NCBI GenBank assembly: GCA_003635305.1
Contig: PYJE01000068.1
Coordinates: 21,882-68,170 of the forward strand
Length of the DNA stretch: 46,289 nucleotides
Direction of reading: 5' to 3'
Source of the DNA: Candidatus Poribacteria bacterium
Lineage (GTDB): Bacteria > Poribacteria > WGA-4E > WGA-3G
The translations under genes were made by a program, and so were the position numbers. Below, in pieces: positions 3,405 through 36,701 of this stretch. Each line of letters opens with the position of its first letter. Position 1 is the first letter of the stretch. A model generated the notes under the pieces. The model had not been told where the DNA came from. It saw only the letters and a program-made list of their open reading frames with translations, and made no database searches.

Positions 3405-3931
3405 TCTTTTGTCTTGGCGCAAACCGTTCCGCCATGGCATGTCGCACAACACAGATTGACTTACCAGAAAATTCAGCACAAAAACGGGGAGACACACCTT
3501 TGCACCAGAAATCCCTAGCGAACGCCTTGCGAAATACGAACATCCTCATTCCCGCGCTGTTTCTCCTCGCCATCCTCACCATCTTGGTGAACAATCGGCG
3601 TGAAGGGAACAGCGGCAATGCCGTTCCCAAACCGTTCGCACAACTGAGCACGGACTTATGCGACTTCGGCGATATCCCGCTTAACACAACGCATACGCAG
3701 CAGGTAATCCTCTCCGTAAACGTGCCGATGGATACAGCCAAGATCCGCCTCATGCCGACACACCACCCCGCGTTGAAATGGAAACTCACGCCGACATCAA
3801 AAGGAAACCTCCTCATCACGATTCAGTTAGGAACGCTGAAAGAGCCGGGCATTTTTTCAGCGTTACTCACGGTGGCTTTTCCGAATGAACGGACATTGAC
3901 GCTGCCTGTATTGGCGCGATGCATTCGGTGA
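3401..3931 (+). CDS. Membrane-anchored Ig-like (DUF1573-like) hypothetical protein
   Basis: One TM segment followed by 'CDFGDI...G.FSA.LTV...LTLPV.A'; ATGA overlap. Start uncertain. Confidence 0.55.
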   Translation: MIFCLGANRSAMACRTTQIDLPENSAQKRGDTPLHQKSLANALRNTNILIPALFLLAILTILVNNRREGNSGNAVPKPFAQLSTDLCDFGDIPLNTTHTQQVILSVNVPMDTAKIRLMPTHHPALKWKLTPTSKGNLLITIQLGTLKEPGIFSALLTVAFPNERTLTLPVLARCIR

Positions 3932-7257: not shown

Positions 7258-7409
7258 CGGGAAACCTCCGGTAGTCGGAAATGGTTCGTTTTAACAACGT
7301 CGATATCGGATATACGGCAAGAGACGTTCATGAACCAGAAACCGTTATTGAATGGTTACGCAGACAGAAACGTGAAAGCGTCTTCTACCTTTCGCGAAAC
7401 GAGGAAAAT

Positions 7410-8420
7410 ATGAGCGGAAAACGGGTTGTTTGGCCAGAACGTGCCAAAGTTGACATCGAAGATTTTGAAATCCCCTCCATCGGCGATGACGAGGTGCTTG
7501 TGGAAACCGAATGCAGCCTCATCAGCCCCGGCACGGAACGCGCCTTTTTATTAGGGCTCCCCAACGCCACAGGCGGCTTCCCCTCGCGTCCCGGCTACAG
7601 CAATATCGGGAAAGTCATCGCCATCGGGAAAGCCGTCACAGGATGGGAGGTAGGCGAACGCGTTGCCTCTACACGCGGACACACCAGCCACTTCGCCACT
7701 GAACCCAATCGGTTGCTTAAGTTGGAAGCACCTGATTCCAACACCTCCACCGCGCTCGCCGAGGAAGCTGTCTTTTTTCAACTCGGCGCAATCGCTTTGC
7801 AAGGCATCCGGAAGGCGCGCATAGAATTAGGCGAAGCAACGTTGGTGCTTGGACAAGGGCTCATCGGTTTGCTCGCGCTGCAACTCGCCAGACTGAACGG
7901 CGCAATCCCAGCCATCGCAGCAGATTTGACAGATAGCCGCCTTGAGGTATCCAAACACATCGGCGCAGACTGCACACTCAACCCCGAAAATGCCGACTTC
8001 TCCGAACAATTGGCAGCAGCGACAAGTGGGAAAGGAACGACGGTTGTCATCGAGGCGACAGGACATCCCGACGCAATCAGCACCGCGTTAGACGTAGCAG
8101 GATGGGGCGCGCGGGTTATCCTCCTCTCAAGCACGCGCGGCGAAACACCCAAGGTCAACTTCTACCGAGATGTCCACAAAAAGGGACTCATCCTCTATGG
8201 CGCGCACAATTCCATCCGGCCCCGCCATGAGTCCTCATCGCATTTCTGGACGCTGGAAGATGACAGTAGATTGATGCTCAAACTCATCGCACAGAAACGG
8301 TTCACCGTCGCGCCGCTCATCACGCATCGCATGCGCGGCGAGGAGGCACCGAAGGCGTATCAACTGCTAATGGCATGGAACCCTGGCCTGCTCGGTGTAG
8401 TCCTCCAATGGAACACATAG
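7410..8420 (+). CDS. MDR-superfamily (zinc-binding alcohol dehydrogenase-like) oxidoreductase
   Basis: 'SLISPGTE', 'PGYS..G', Rossmann 'GQGLIG', 'VIEATG'; GAGG RBS before ATG 7410. Confidence 0.88.
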   Translation: MSGKRVVWPERAKVDIEDFEIPSIGDDEVLVETECSLISPGTERAFLLGLPNATGGFPSRPGYSNIGKVIAIGKAVTGWEVGERVASTRGHTSHFATEPNRLLKLEAPDSNTSTALAEEAVFFQLGAIALQGIRKARIELGEATLVLGQGLIGLLALQLARLNGAIPAIAADLTDSRLEVSKHIGADCTLNPENADFSEQLAAATSGKGTTVVIEATGHPDAISTALDVAGWGARVILLSSTRGETPKVNFYRDVHKKGLILYGAHNSIRPRHESSSHFWTLEDDSRLMLKLIAQKRFTVAPLITHRMRGEEAPKAYQLLMAWNPGLLGVVLQWNT

Positions 8421-8550: not shown

Positions 8551-10707
8551 ATGCACAGAAACTCTGATCGAACGCGTTGCGAAATACGAAATATTGGGAT
8601 TGCGGCGCACATCGATGCCGGCAAGACGACGACAACCGAACGGATTCTCTTCTATACCGGCAAAAAACATAAAATCGGCGCGGTTGATGACGGCACCGCC
8701 GAGATGGATTGGATGGTGCAGGAGCGCGAGCGCGGCGTAACTATCACCGCCGCTGCAACAACCTGCTTCTGGAAGGATTGCGCCATTCATCTCATTGATA
8801 CACCCGGGCACGTCGATTTTACCGTGGAGGTAGAACGTTCGCTGCGCGTGCTAGACGGTGCCATCGCGCTCTTCTGTGCTGTCGGCGGCGTGGAACCGCA
8901 GTCCGAAACAGTCTGGCATCAGGCGGAACGCTACGGTGTCCCGCGCATCGCATTCGTCAATAAGATGGATAGAATCGGCGCGAATTTCACGCGCACCATC
9001 GAGATGATGAAGGAACGCCTCGATGCAAATCCGCTGCCGCTTCAACTGCCCATCGGTGAGGGAAACGAATTCACCGGTATCATTGAGCTCCTCACACAAA
9101 AGGCACTCTATTGGAACACGGAAGATTTCGGGCAAACCTATCGTGAATCCGATATCCCATCTGAATTTCATGCCGAAGTCAGTCTCGCGCGGGAAACCCT
9201 CTTTGAAACCGTCGCCGCCGAAGATGACGCGCTCCTCGAAAAATATCTAGAAGGTGAAGAATTAACGCCTGCCGAATTGCTCCCTGTCATCCGCGAAGCA
9301 ACACTGAAGGGAACGTTAGTACCGGTGCTGTGCGGCAGCGCCTTAAAGAATACCGGCGTTCAACCGTTGTTGGATGCAGTCGTCAATTTTCTGCCATCGC
9401 CTGTCGACGTGCCCCCCATACAAGGGACAATACCCGATACCCCATCGCAAAAAAATAGCACCCAAAACGTAGTCATCAACAACGTTGATGACGGCCCTGG
9501 TAAGCCAACCGTCACATCACCGAAGATGCACGCCGAACGCATTGCGAACGACAAAGAACCCTTTTCAGCACTCGCCTTTAAAGTCGCCAGCCATCCCACC
9601 GTCGATAAATTAGTATATTGCCGCGTCTATTCCGGCACGCTCAAGCGCGGCGATGTCGTGCTGAACGTCGGCACCGAAAAACGGGAACGGGTGAATCGCA
9701 TTCTTCAGATGCACGCCAATAAAGAGGCGGTGTGCGATGCCGCCTACGCAGGCGACATCGTCGCGCTGGTTGGACTGAAACAGACGAAAACAGGGGATAC
9801 CTTGACAGCCCCGGAGCACCCTATCTTGCTCGCGCCCATCGATTTTCCACCCCCGGTCATCTCCATCGCCATTGAACCGGAACGCGCTAGCGATGCAGAC
9901 GCGTTGGAGGAAACCCTCCAAAAACTGATGGACGAAGATCCGACGTTTACCGTCGGTATTGACAAGGAAACCGGACAGCGCATCATTTCCGGGATGGGAG
10001 AACTCCACTTGGAAGTGCTTACGGATAGAATGATTCGCGAATTTGGCGTAAACGCACGGGTGAGCAAGTTGCAGGTGGCGTATCGTGAAACCATCGGCAC
10101 CTCGGCGGCGGCGCGCGGCACACATATCCATAAGACAGACGAAGAAGGCATCTATGGCGATGTCACCCTCAACGTTGAACCGCTAGCACGCGGCGAAGGA
10201 TTCCAATTTGCGGACAACACCGACGAAACGCAGATTCCACGTCCCTACATTCCATCTATCCAGAACGCGCTGCACCGCGCGATGGGGACAGGCGCGCTCA
10301 TCGGCTCACCCTTGCAGGATATCAAGGTGACGCTCACCGGCGGTTCCACGCACCCGACAGATGCATCGGAGATAGGGTATGAAGCCGCCGCCGTCCTCGC
10401 CTTTGAAAACGCAGTGAAAAAGGCGAACCCACTGCTCCTTGAACCGATGATGCAGATACATGTCACCGTGCCGGATGAACACGTCGGAAAGGTTATTGGC
10501 GAACTGAATAGCCGCCGCGCGCAAATTCATGAAAGCGGAAGCCCGCGCGAGAATGTCTCCTTTATCAACGCGCTCATTCCTCTGGCAGAAACGTTCCAGT
10601 ATACAACGTCGCTTCGTTCAATGACGCAAGGACGCGGCACGTTTACGTTGGAGTTTTCGCATTACGATGTAGTCCCAAAATCTTTGATGCCCGGGCATCG
10701 CGTTTAA
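8551..10707 (+). CDS. fusA: Elongation factor G (stand-alone paralog)
   Basis: '[15 protein letters not shown]', 'DTPGHVDF', 'NKMD', 'GMGELHLE', 'LLEPMM', 'LRSMTQGRG'; not flanked by rpsL/rpsG/tuf. Confidence 0.9.
9469..9504 (+). repeat. Family D REP-like element inserted in frame in fusA
   Basis: gtagtcatcaac-aac-gttgatgacggccctggtaag; near-identical to intergenic 31650-31685. Confidence 0.85.
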
Positions 10708-31587: not shown

Positions 31588-31649
31588 TTAGAATGGAATT
31601 TTCATAGCGACGTTGTGAAAACTGACTAAAAAAACTTACCCTCAGGAAC

Positions 31650-31685
31650 GTAGTCACCGACAACGTCGATGACAGCCCTGGTAAG
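31650..31685 (+). repeat. Family D REP-like element (intergenic counterpart of the fusA insert)
   Basis: gtagtcaccgac-aac-gtcgatgacagccctggtaag. Confidence 0.85.
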
Positions 31686-31740
31686 GGACGCTTCTACATA
31701 CAATGAAAGCTGCCCGAAGGCTTTGCGCCAGGAGGAAAAC

Positions 31741-34281
31741 ATGGAAACGCAAGAAAGAGCACACTCACAAAACGAACAGCAGCGCGAACCTCGCGCAACC
31801 GAAAAAAAACCGAACCGCGAGTTCCCAGTGCTTCCACTAGATGACTTGGTGGTTTTTCCGCATATGCCGCCCGTTCCGCCGTTTCCGCCGCACCACGTCG
31901 CGCTCTCCGGCGAAATGGCAACAGCCGCCTTGGAAGCCACGACGCGGAGCGAACGCGGGCTTTGCATCTTCCGGCCCAACCCCGACATCACCTATGACGG
32001 GATACCAAACATCACCAAGGCAGACCTGAGTCCTATCGGGAGCCTCGTCCACATCCTACGCTTTAAAAAAGACGATGGCGATGTCCTCTTCCTCGCGCAC
32101 GGACGCGAACGCGTCAAGATTGAGGAGATTCTCTCCACCGAACCCTTTATCTCCGCGCGCGTCGCTATCGTCAACAGCGAAGCCGAGATAGTCGATGGAC
32201 TTCACCAGAATTTGGAACTCGAAGCACTCGTTCGCAGCAACGAGGAAATGTTCCAGCGGATTGTCGCAATGTCCGGCCGCTACCAAGAAGAATACGGCGC
32301 GATTACCAAAACGATAGAACAGCCCGGCCGCCTCGCCGATTATATCGCCGCCGTGCTTGACTTAAAATCCACCGATAAGCAGCGGATTTTAGAGGCCGTG
32401 TCCGTCACGAAACGGTTGAATTCCCTCGCCATCATCCTCGCACGGGAACTCGATTTGCACGAATTGGAGAATAAAATCCAGCACAGCGCGCAATCCGTCA
32501 TTAACAAAGGCCAGCGCGAATACTATCTCCGAGAACAACTCAAAGCCATTCAGACAGAACTCGGCGAAGCGGAAGACCTCGGGCTGGAAATCGATGAACT
32601 CCGCGAACAACTCCGCACCACCGTCATGCCCGAAAAGGCGAAACAGACAGCAGAGAAGGAACTCAACCGCCTCGCGAAAATGCAGTCCTTCTCACCCGAA
32701 TCCACCGTCTCGCGGAATTACCTCGATTGGCTTCTCAACCTACCCTGGGAAGTCAGCACCGAAGATAGTTTAAACCTGCGTGCTGCAAAAACCGTTCTTG
32801 ACGAAGACCACTACGGCTTAGAGAAAGTAAAAGAGCGGATTGTCGAACACCTCGCCGTGCGAATGCTCCACACGCGGCGCGCAAAGGATAACAGTGACAC
32901 CGAACGCGACCGGCACGCCGAAACCAGCGCGGACGTTCCCGCGCAAAAGCCCGCGGCTTTTCTCACGTATGAGATGAAAAGCCCCATTTTCTGCTTTGTC
33001 GGGCCACCGGGTGTCGGCAAAACGTCCCTCGGCCGCTCCATCGCCCGCGCCATGGATAGGAAGTTCGTCCGCGTATCCCTCGGCGGTATGCACGATGAAG
33101 CAGAAATCCGCGGGCATCGCCGCACCTACATCGGCTCAATGCCGGGGCGCATTCTGAAAGGACTCCGCACCGCCGAATCCAACAATCCCATCTTCATGCT
33201 TGATGAGATTGACAAACTCGGCACCGATTTCCGCGGCGACCCGGGTGCAGCCCTGCTTGAAGTGTTGGATCCGGAGCAGAACCACGCCTTCACCGACAAC
33301 TACCTCGATGTCCCGTTCGATCTTTCCAAGGTGATGTTCATCACCACGGCGAATCAATTGGACACGATTCCCATCGCGCTGCGCGACCGGATGGAGACGC
33401 TTGAACTCGCCGGCTATACCACCAACGAGAAACTGCAGATTGCCAAGCAGTATCTCCTCCCGCGCCAACTCACCGCGAACGGCCTGACAGCGGAACAGCT
33501 GCACATTGACGACGCGGCAATTGATACCGTCATCAGCGCGTATACCCGGGAAGCAGGCGTGCGGAATTTGGAGCGTGAACTCGGCACCCTCTGCAGGAAA
33601 GAAGCACGCCGTATCGCTGAAGGCATGACAGCCGGAACAACGAAGATTTCGGCGAAAAGCATCCCCGATTACCTCGGGCCAGAAAAGTTCACCGCCGAAG
33701 TCGCCGGCCGCAAGGCGGAAATCGGCATCGCCACCGGGCTCTCTGTCACCCCCGCAGGCGGCGAAATCCTGTTCGTGGAGGTAGCCACCTATTCCCGCAC
33801 CGCTGGTGAGAGAGAACGCGCGCAGCCATCACAACTCCGCATCACCGGACAACTCGGAAATGTGATGCAGGAATCGGCGCAGACCGCGCTCAGCTACGTC
33901 AAATCGCAAGCGGCCGCACTACACTTTAACCCGGGCGCGTTGGATACCGACATCCACATCCATGTGCCCGCCGGCGCGATTCCAAAGGACGGGCCCTCTG
34001 CAGGCATTACGATTGCTACCGCACTCGCTTCCATCGCCACGGGGAAAAGCATCAGTCCGGATATCGCGATGACCGGCGAACTCACACTGCGAGGCAGAGT
34101 CTTGCCCATCGGCGGACTCAAGGAGAAAATCCTCGCCGCCAAACAAGCAGGCATCAAGAAGATTATCGTCCCGCGCGGCAACGAAAACCATTTTGTCGAC
34201 ATCCCGGAAGACATTCAATCCGGGATAACGTTCCGCTTCGTGGAATTTATGAGCGAAGTTTTCCAGGAGATATTCTCATGA
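31741..34281 (+). CDS. lon: ATP-dependent Lon protease
   Basis: 'GPPGVGKTS', 'RGHRRTYIG', 'LDEIDK', 'PKDGPSAG' (Ser), 'IGGLKEK' (Lys); GGAGG RBS. Confidence 0.96.
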   Translation: METQERAHSQNEQQREPRATEKKPNREFPVLPLDDLVVFPHMPPVPPFPPHHVALSGEMATAALEATTRSERGLCIFRPNPDITYDGIPNITKADLSPIGSLVHILRFKKDDGDVLFLAHGRERVKIEEILSTEPFISARVAIVNSEAEIVDGLHQNLELEALVRSNEEMFQRIVAMSGRYQEEYGAITKTIEQPGRLADYIAAVLDLKSTDKQRILEAVSVTKRLNSLAIILARELDLHELENKIQHSAQSVINKGQREYYLREQLKAIQTELGEAEDLGLEIDELREQLRTTVMPEKAKQTAEKELNRLAKMQSFSPESTVSRNYLDWLLNLPWEVSTEDSLNLRAAKTVLDEDHYGLEKVKERIVEHLAVRMLHTRRAKDNSDTERDRHAETSADVPAQKPAAFLTYEMKSPIFCFVGPPGVGKTSLGRSIARAMDRKFVRVSLGGMHDEAEIRGHRRTYIGSMPGRILKGLRTAESNNPIFMLDEIDKLGTDFRGDPGAALLEVLDPEQNHAFTDNYLDVPFDLSKVMFITTANQLDTIPIALRDRMETLELAGYTTNEKLQIAKQYLLPRQLTANGLTAEQLHIDDAAIDTVISAYTREAGVRNLERELGTLCRKEARRIAEGMTAGTTKISAKSIPDYLGPEKFTAEVAGRKAEIGIATGLSVTPAGGEILFVEVATYSRTAGERERAQPSQLRITGQLGNVMQESAQTALSYVKSQAAALHFNPGALDTDIHIHVPAGAIPKDGPSAGITIATALASIATGKSISPDIAMTGELTLRGRVLPIGGLKEKILAAKQAGIKKIIVPRGNENHFVDIPEDIQSGITFRFVEFMSEVFQEIFS

Positions 34282-36518: not shown

Positions 36519-36588
36519 AGCTCTTTCGTATTGGCGCAAAGCGTTCGGCGAGCATCTCCTGCTTTATCGGGCACTCTCGCCGTAATCC

Positions 36589-36612
36589 GTCATCGTCGTT
36601 GACGATGACTCC
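36589..36612 (-). repeat. Family D REP-like hairpin
   Basis: gtcatcgtc-gtt-gacgatgac, perfect 9-bp stem; minus strand reads GGAG-TCATCGTCAACGACGATGAC. Confidence 0.7.
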
Positions 36613-36701
36613 GCGCTTGATGCAATTTTCTTGAAAAATTCAGGATTTGGGTTTACTCGAGGCAACCCCCACAGTTGTTTCGGCGTAACGGAGGAAAACC
36701 G

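Follow-up and report, generated by a model that had tools for sequence, protein, structure and literature searches.

Palindromic repeats with a GTAG or CGTC tag lie inside genes of several bacterial species, the largest number in Opitutus terrae of the PVC superphylum, according to the main text of a survey of intragenic GTAG repetitive extragenic palindromes (REPs; Di Nocera, De Gregorio, Rocco 2013; PMC3733652). In that account intragenic REPs are often located in repair genes including uvrA, a repeated target, and they are argued to lie in linkers or loops. Closely comparable are the Rickettsia palindromic elements (RPE; Ogata et al. 2000, 2002), intragenic palindromic repeats of Rickettsia that, as summarized in PMC10969869 and PMC3733652, are thought to land at places compatible with the protein fold. 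As far as its main text shows, Poribacteria were outside the PMC3733652 survey and the term "elongation factor" occurs 0 times, a statement that does not extend to the target list in its Additional file 3. We found no paper linking Poribacteria with REP, palindromic, MITE (miniature inverted-repeat transposable element), or REP-associated tyrosine transposase (RAYT) repeats. Here we describe a window of 46,289 nucleotides from a Candidatus Poribacteria bacterium (GenBank assembly GCA_003635305.1, contig PYJE01000068.1, positions 21,882 to 68,170), in which a gene for elongation factor G (EF-G) very probably carries such a repeat in its reading frame. The window is part of contig C68 of the source metagenome-assembled genome (MAG), called G000 below, which has 4.35 Mb in 213 contigs and is 87% complete.

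On the explanation that we hold to be very likely correct, a non-autonomous, GTAG-headed, REP-like unit was inserted in frame in the linker that connects the G domain of this EF-G with its domain II and is read as a protein loop. A profile built from 166 units, with the EF-G copy left out, matched the gene at window positions 9464-9556 (nhmmer, model positions 6-97 of 98, E 1.4e-8). The left flank of the EF-G copy, AATAGCACCCAAAAC, is common to the sub-family with the TCATCGAC stem, and we therefore place the unit at approximately 9454-9558. The original prediction had put an in-frame REP at 9449-9504; a REP is indeed present at the site, and the repeat-derived stretch is longer than was thought. 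With the 105-nt unit as query, blastn gave about 120 alignment rows in the source genome, the best of them 71-76% identical over 92-105 nt, and the closest copy (76%, 92 nt, ungapped) is another in-frame copy, in an open reading frame (ORF) for UvrA. The reported near-identity to a repeat upstream of lon also holds, since the 39-mers at 9466-9504 and 31647-31685 are identical at 35 of 39 bases, with two of the four differences at paired stem positions. Because the lon copy has four mismatches, a search with the exact 39-mer allowing up to 3 mismatches finds nothing but itself, while a search with a degenerate 24-nt core gives 3 matches in the window versus 0 in 100 shuffles. We set aside an intein, an intron, and translational bypass, given that the stretch is open in frame, has a length divisible by three, and corresponds to a family of DNA repeats.

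The host gene is a second EF-G paralogue and not the housekeeping fusA of the str operon. It scores 899.9 bits against TIGR00484 (cut-off 659.4), with residues 11-713 aligned to model positions 9-682 of 691, so the assignment to EF-G in the original prediction was right at the level of the family. The str-operon fusA of this genome is on contig C112 in the order rpsL-rpsG-fusA-tuf-rpsJ-rplC and scores 1056.8 bits against the same model. In contrast, the neighbors of the window gene are a dehydrogenase-like ORF and ORFs that lack an NCBIfam match. In an alignment of 40 EF-G sequences, the G motifs of the paralogue all fall in invariant columns and its identity to distant EF-Gs is about 54%. Like canonical bacterial EF-G (TIGR00484; T. 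thermophilus and E. coli structures), it has the complete five-domain architecture; it differs from it in standing alone outside the str operon and in the length of the junction between the G domain and domain II.

At this junction the paralogue has 38 residues versus 10 in T. thermophilus EF-G (1dar), where query residues 11-296 align with 11-295 and 335-712 with 306-683, which bears out the earlier description of an atypical loop. Measured between the LPSP and ALAFK motifs, the span is 64 aa with the insert and 37 in short-loop orthologues of other families, a net gain of about 27 residues. In an AlphaFold2 model of the paralogue (40 sequences, mean pLDDT 79.9), residues 298-324 are coil with pLDDT below 50, and the score rises to 63 for residues 321-330 and 93 for residues 331-340. 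The head and spacer of the unit, which code for about 24 hydrophilic residues, are thus modelled as a disordered surface loop at the junction, as would be expected from the suggestion in the original prediction that the peptide maps to a surface loop. The residues AERIANDKE coded by the tail of the unit stand where orthologues have a conserved x-R-x-A-D/N-D-x-x segment before PF, and R330, D334, and P337 are nearly invariant among the 40 EF-G sequences.

We searched for the insert in 30 orthologous EF-G loci and found it in three, those of G000, G001, and G002, which are the three species of the genus (3/3). The 27 orthologues from outside the genus lack head and spacer altogether. At this place, loops of unrelated, Lys/Ser-rich sequence and about 30-37 residues are seen in other genera of the family, and in other families the loop is short, at about 17-18 residues. 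In G012 and G013 the loop DNA is single-copy in its own genome, which leads us to reject the idea that these Lys/Ser-rich loops are repeat-derived. The G/II linker has been lengthened independently in other Poribacteria genera (L003-L023) and is a hot spot for changes in length even where there is no repeat. The comparison of orthologues proposed earlier therefore comes out in favor of an in-frame REP: no relative lacking the repeat family has the loop, the profile match is independent of the EF-G copy, presence is limited to the genus, and the loops of relatives are short or unrelated and, in the two genomes named, single-copy. In all likelihood the unit entered the EF-G paralogue in the common ancestor of this Poribacteria genus. 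When we scanned metagenome contigs for further carriers, the best relative was 77% identical, and no additional member of the genus was found. In many metagenomic EF-G relatives at about 50% identity (L157, L159-L161, L166-L168, and others), about 700 query residues are spread over 2.5-3.1 kb, so these genes have 130-320 extra codons somewhere.

The repeat family itself has a similar distribution. A 19-mer pattern of the tail occurs 104 times in G000, 15 times in G001, and 36 times in G002, and 0 times in 38 other relatives; a control pattern gave 0. The head pattern is found 117, 26, and 28 times in the three species and 0-2 times, which is background, in most other genera. In a second genus (g5), the head pattern ranges from 2 to 33 across nine genomes, with 22-33 in three of them, and the EF-G paralogue there has no insert. 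These counts bear on the reverse direction, in which the repeat family would have been born from a captured and amplified piece of EF-G. The likeness of the in-frame tail to a native EF-G motif and the unusual freedom of the units from stop codons would fit such an origin. However, the GTAG-hairpin core with the same loop is multi-copy in g5, whose paralogue lacks the insert, and the orthologues outside the genus lack head and spacer alike. The EF-G copy is also diverged rather than consensus-like (35.8 bits versus at least 45 for typical copies), and the GTAG head, the palindrome, and the head-to-head dimers are hallmarks of REPs as presented in the main text of PMC3733652. We regard this direction as largely refuted and very improbable.

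Repeats often break or mis-join assemblies, and G000 is a fragmented MAG of 213 contigs, so mis-assembly through the repeat has to be weighed, together with the possibility that the insert sits in a decaying paralogue. Two other assemblies, of 2 and 4 contigs, have the insert at the same place. We also compared populations as assembled contigs from four studies (four sets or runs): all have the insert, with no indel and no joint, and 3 of the 4 independent runs span 601 nt in a single contig. Rare variants that lack the insert could escape a comparison based on contigs. The frame of the paralogue is open in G000, G001, and G002, and its ratio of nonsynonymous to synonymous change (omega) calculated without the insert is 0.09-0.12 among these three species, indicating purifying selection. 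An EF-G match is present in 41/41 genomes of the order, and the listed top matches are open frames of 684-748 aa, in G017 as two adjoining frames. Artefact and gene decay are both contradicted by these data, and we give them practically no chance.

We next turn to the repeat unit. The conserved unit is about 98 nt long and consists of a flank rich in A, GTAG, a stem of 8-9 bp that encloses the loop AAC, CGG, a spacer of about 37 nt, and a 27-nt tail. Its consensus begins with TATCAAAAATGTAG and ends with GCGAACAACAAAAA, and the consensus of the tail in the alignment of 166 units is CCGAACGCCTTGCGAACAACAAAAA. The profile search of G000 gave 289 unit matches, and a search with the 26-nt core gave 183 near matches. 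We counted the strict pattern GTAG-N7-CAACG-N7-CGG 117 times, versus 3 for the reversed control. A scan by structure only gave 333 AAC-loop hairpins, 108 of which are preceded by GTAG and followed by CGG, a pair of flanks far more frequent than any other; CAAG, CGAG, and GGAG are head variants found beside GTAG. At least 15 stem variants stay complementary, for example AAAACGAC (n=42), ATATCGGC (n=17), and TCATCGAC (n=13). Among neighboring units less than 200 nt apart, 39 pairs are head-to-head, 41 are in tandem, and 3 are tail-to-tail, and the two hairpins of a doublet usually differ in stem. The units are strongly clustered, with 30, 23, and 13 profile matches on contigs C134, C100, and C101 and many head-to-head pairs. 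Most of them (245/289) are outside ORFs having 60 aa on either side. Full-length units have a mean of 1.28 open sense frames versus 0.63 in shuffles. Rfam at gathering thresholds gave 0 matches in the whole window, so the unit corresponds to no described RNA family.

The repeat resembles the intragenic GTAG REPs in most respects that the main text of PMC3733652 describes: a GTAG head followed by a stem of 6-9 bp, alternative complementary stems, a predominance of head-to-head dimers, and copies that are mostly extragenic with a minority wholly within ORFs and in frame. The shared points in our set are the GTAG end, the short stem-loop with stem sub-families, the high, uneven, and mainly extragenic copy number, and the head-to-head doublets. 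uvrA is a target in both cases, the UvrA ORF described below having two units. In contrast, the REPs of that survey are 20-40 nt long, while the Poribacteria unit, at about 98 nt, is outside this range, and a single unit encodes about 31-35 residues. The consensus ends TATCAAAAATGTAG and GCGAACAACAAAAA are not reverse complements of each other, and so the terminal inverted repeats typical of MITEs are absent; target-site duplications were not searched for. As the RPE are described in PMC10969869 and PMC3733652, they resemble our unit in being palindromic, about 100-150 bp long, and open in frame, and in having been inserted many times in unrelated housekeeping genes of a host-associated bacterium; here too there are many in-frame insertions in unrelated domain-bearing genes, with the insert absent from orthologues of relatives. 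The two differ in tag (GTAG here, CGTC in RPE according to PMC3733652), in that 245/289 Poribacteria units are outside long ORFs, and in that RPE-type repeats are without a dedicated transposase (PMC3733652). The phenomenon as such has already been described (PMC3733652, PMC10969869), and what the Poribacteria case adds, relative to those accounts, is a larger-than-usual GTAG-REP-like unit.

EF-G is one of many proteins in this genome that contain the unit. Counting a unit as intragenic when it is inside a stop-to-stop ORF with at least 60 aa on either side, we found 44 of 289 units in 36 ORFs of at least 200 aa. ORFs of at least 400 aa, of which there are 26, hold 33 units, 30 in sense and 3 in antisense orientation. 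Pfam families were detected in 18 of the 20 longest unit-bearing ORFs, several having domains on both sides of the unit. Unit-bearing ORFs include GMP synthase (GuaA), a FAD_binding_2/Succ_DH_flav_C flavoprotein of the SdhA/NadB type, a Wzz/GNVR kinase, a glucan phosphorylase, a family-9 glycosyltransferase, and an SLT transglycosylase, among others. The largest example is a frame of 2695 aa (C100:7866-15950, L121) with Propeptide_C25, Peptidase_C25, and a C-terminal FlgD_ig, in which we counted five full units, all in sense, and two more C25 peptidase ORFs (2167 and 1017 aa) contain units. A frame of 1960 aa with UvrA domains (C88:15436-21315, L123), about twice the usual length of UvrA, has a sense unit near its middle (after residue 993), which is the closest relative of the EF-G copy, and an antisense unit further on.

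For two of these genes, orthologue comparison of the sequences confirmed that the units are true insertions, as far as absence from relatives can tell. G000 has the GuaA insert in full, G002 has a remnant of it, and G009, G012, and G026 lack it; the GuaA query found no match in G001. In the flavoprotein, the insert is complete in G000, is shorter in G002, and is missing from G001, G012, G009, and G026. The same 27-nt tail is tandemly doubled in frame within the flavoprotein insert. The claim of the original prediction that REPs are creating peptide loops in core proteins of the lineage is accordingly well founded with respect to the 44 intragenic units and the GuaA and flavoprotein insertions found by the genome-wide check, and needs amendment with respect to EF-G, which is a paralogue.

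In the mechanism that we propose, the second EF-G paralogue would have received a non-autonomous GTAG-headed REP-like repeat in its linker loop, between G domain and domain II, and this entry would date to the common ancestor of the genus. The EF-G copy has no stop codon in frame and so would be translated with the gene. The head and spacer would then give a disordered hydrophilic surface loop, and the tail would give AERIANDKE ahead of the strand with which domain II begins. Our preferred view is that the insert is selfish DNA carried along as a tolerated passenger. The comparisons show its membership in the repeat family, its frame, its distribution among relatives, the purifying selection on the host gene, and, in a model, the disorder of the loop; we infer its translation in vivo, its near-neutrality, and its route of entry.

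Several observations weigh against this account, and they concern mobilization, the 3' boundary of the insert, its rate of change, and its translation, which in vivo is deduced from the open frame. With regard to mobilization, PF01797 (Y1 transposase) had no match in the 87% complete assembly of G000, and neither did the RAYT of G001 used as a query. RAYT genes are present in G001 and G002 (NF047646, 127 and 120 bits versus a cut-off of 80), but the loci that hold them contain no AAC-loop hairpin of this family and are flanked by other GTAG repeats. These loci (L117 2300-4400 in G001 and L118 2400-4800 in G002) are REPtron-like, with the RAYT genes (NF047646) lying within arrays of other GTAG-headed palindromes, which read GTAGGAGAGACCTCC... 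in G001 and GTAGTTCGGGAGC... in G002. With these two families, the genus hosts at least three families of GTAG repeats. A RAYT flanked by the same repeat, which would define a REPtron, was found in none of the three genomes. As far as the published descriptions of REPIN/RAYT systems go (PMC3116915, PMC3337134, PMC2817692), our repeats are similar in being high-copy GTAG palindromes, often in inverted doublets, in a genus that has RAYTs; they differ in that the RAYTs of the genus are flanked by other GTAG families, in that no RAYT was found in G000, and in that the stems of a doublet usually differ. Given that no RAYT was found in G000 and that the RAYTs of the sister species have other repeats, the label "RAYT-type" used in the original prediction expresses a resemblance, in the GTAG head and the dimer habit, rather than demonstrated membership.

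The second point concerns the tail. Since the residues that it codes for coincide with the nearly invariant R330 and D334, the 3' end of the inserted DNA can be placed only tentatively. In G001 there are three tandem 27-nt tail units in EF-G, two of which match the 19-mer tail pattern exactly, while G000 and G002 have one tail unit each and no separate native segment left. By manual count, a repeat-free orthologue shares about 13 of 27 positions with the tail, including an identical run of 9 nt. Most probably, the unit inserted beside the native segment or entered by recombination across it, and a hybrid then resulted from unequal exchange among 27-nt units; with a tail of 27 nt, the frame is kept on duplication.

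A related alternative is that the unit was not transposed at all, and was copied in from another copy by ectopic recombination, gene conversion, or template switching. The anchors would have been the chance likeness of the 27-nt tail to the native x-R-x-A-N/D-D segment and the A-run on the left, and the same process would still be exchanging sequence between the in-gene copy and the family. The tail is located exactly at the native conserved segment, with no second native copy in G000 or G002, and the repeat-free orthologue L005 has ACGCCTCGC here, the same nine letters that are found in the tail of G001. The three tandem units in G001 imply that unequal exchange has happened at the EF-G site. 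Four other populations have the family-consensus stem through changes 8 nt apart (9478 A>G and 9486 T>C), which one short conversion tract would explain, and the inserts of G000 and G001 are closer to each other than are the synonymous sites of the gene. However, we saw no donor with EF-G-specific features, the stem TCATCAAC occurring once in G000 and the best other copies being 71-76% identical over the unit, and the double stem change may equally come from selection for pairing. We consider copying-in possible, though on the whole doubtful.

The third point concerns the rate of change of the insert, for which estimates rest on few sites because the carriers are three species. Between G000 and G001 the unit differs at 12/105 nt and the rest of the gene at 377/2031; synonymous divergence (dS) of the insert is 0.14 (3.0 of 22.8 sites), compared with 0.79 for the rest of the gene, and a core of 35 nt is identical. 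For a pure passenger, one would expect freer evolution than this insert shows. The comparison of G000 with G002 gives 14/105 differing nt in the unit and 158/2031 in the rest of the gene, with 6 differences in the 35-nt core by manual count. Simple three-taxon arithmetic assigns 2 of the changes in the unit to the G000 branch, 12 to that of G002, and 10 to that of G001. Nonsynonymous divergence (dN) of the insert is 0.10-0.18 versus a dS of 0.29-0.86 for the remaining gene in the three comparisons. In RNA folds, both G000 and G001 form the intact 9-bp hairpin, and G002 has lost it (-5.6 versus -13.7 kcal/mol). Among strains, 7 of 17 variable places are in the 105-nt unit, versus about 3 expected from its length, and two more are a short way upstream of it. 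In 4/4 other populations, the stem pair 9478 and 9486 has changed jointly from A-T to G-C, giving the commonest stem of the sub-family; on these small numbers, the joint change reflects either selection for pairing or exchange with other copies.

These data also bear on whether the insert has been co-opted, either as a hairpin in mRNA or DNA at a domain boundary (acting in pausing, stability, or protein binding) or because the loop itself is under selection. The insert has been kept in three species, its hairpin is intact in G000 and G001 despite the gene dS of 0.79, a paired position has been altered on both sides in all four other populations, and in all three comparisons its dN is well under the dS of the remaining gene. 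On the other hand, G002 has lost the hairpin with its gene intact and the same selection acting on the rest, the loop is disordered in the prediction, and the excess of strain-variable places in the unit goes in the opposite direction. The same unit is also found in dozens of unrelated proteins, which suggests tolerance over a specific role, a conclusion that the main text of PMC3733652 likewise reaches for other intragenic REPs. Co-option thus seems to us improbable.

A tolerated passenger remains the reading that we prefer for the EF-G insert, and there is a further reading that joins several of the above. In-gene copies may stay "alive" as nucleic acid, as is suggested by the hairpin kept across species (35 nt unchanged, with a dS of 0.79 for the gene) and the stem pair swapped among strains; the tail may have replaced the native segment, and the family may have become adapted to coding sequence, as the open frames, the 27-nt tail that duplicates in frame, and the sense bias would suggest. 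The hairpin would then be kept through exchange with the family or through selection at the domain boundary, and selfish DNA would now encode the nearly invariant R330 and D334. Taken jointly, we find these propositions speculative and rather unlikely.

Coordinates of the EF-G gene, the parts of its insert, and the other copies of the repeat in the window are collected in Table 1. The copy directly upstream of lon (31642-31745) has a variant tail, GCGCCAGGAGGAAAACATG, that sets AGGAGG six bases ahead of the ATG at 31742. The listed lon ORF starts at an ATG within the hairpin, at 31669, and reads in frame across the unit; this N-terminal extension is probably false. The dehydrogenase-like ORF upstream of EF-G (7281-8420) has first letters MVRFNNVDIGYTARD that are inside a partial repeat unit. 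Here a later Met (MSGKRVVW) is the likelier start, and the extension through the unit is again probably false.

Table 1. The EF-G paralogue and copies of the repeat unit, in window coordinates.
Feature	Position	Strand	Details and basis
Second EF-G paralogue	8551..10707	+	718 aa, stand-alone, outside the str operon; ORF and TIGR00484
Whole repeat unit, in frame, codons N302-E336	9454..9558	+	nhmmer; blastn; orthologue comparison
REP core	9469..9494	+	GTAG 9469-9472; 9-bp stem 9472-9480 with 9484-9492; loop AAC 9481-9483; CGG
Middle part, less conserved spacer	9495..9531	+	within the profile match; encodes 12 residues
27-nt tail, encodes AERIANDKE	9532..9558	+	about 23/27 bases as in the family tail consensus (manual count)
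Repeat unit, intergenic or 5'-leader, directly upstream of lon	31642..31738	+	nhmmer C68:53523-53619, model 3-97, E 1.3e-5
Repeat unit, intergenic, between two + strand ORFs	36524..36618	-	nhmmer C68:58499-58405, E 1.9e-11
Partial unit, 5' end of the dehydrogenase-like ORF upstream of EF-G	7294..7354	+	nhmmer C68:29175-29235, model 21-80, E 3e-7
Partial unit, tail half	3484..3540	+	nhmmer C68:25365-25421, model 40-96, E 2.4e-4

The two probably false N-terminal extensions, of lon and of the dehydrogenase-like ORF, are a warning for the annotation of such MAGs, as is the fact that repeat masking or filters on loop length would mis-handle real genes in them. After Rickettsia and Opitutus, the sponge-symbiont phylum Poribacteria is a third clear lineage in which palindromic repeats are routinely read as protein, with targets that include a translation GTPase, GMP synthase, UvrA, and large secreted peptidases. 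The EF-G insert exists in three states, with an intact hairpin, a decayed hairpin, or a threefold tail, in three species and several strains, which makes it well suited for study. With these three states, one can ask for how long such an insert survives, whether it is the hairpin or the peptide that is retained, and whether a repeat tail can take over native protein segments.

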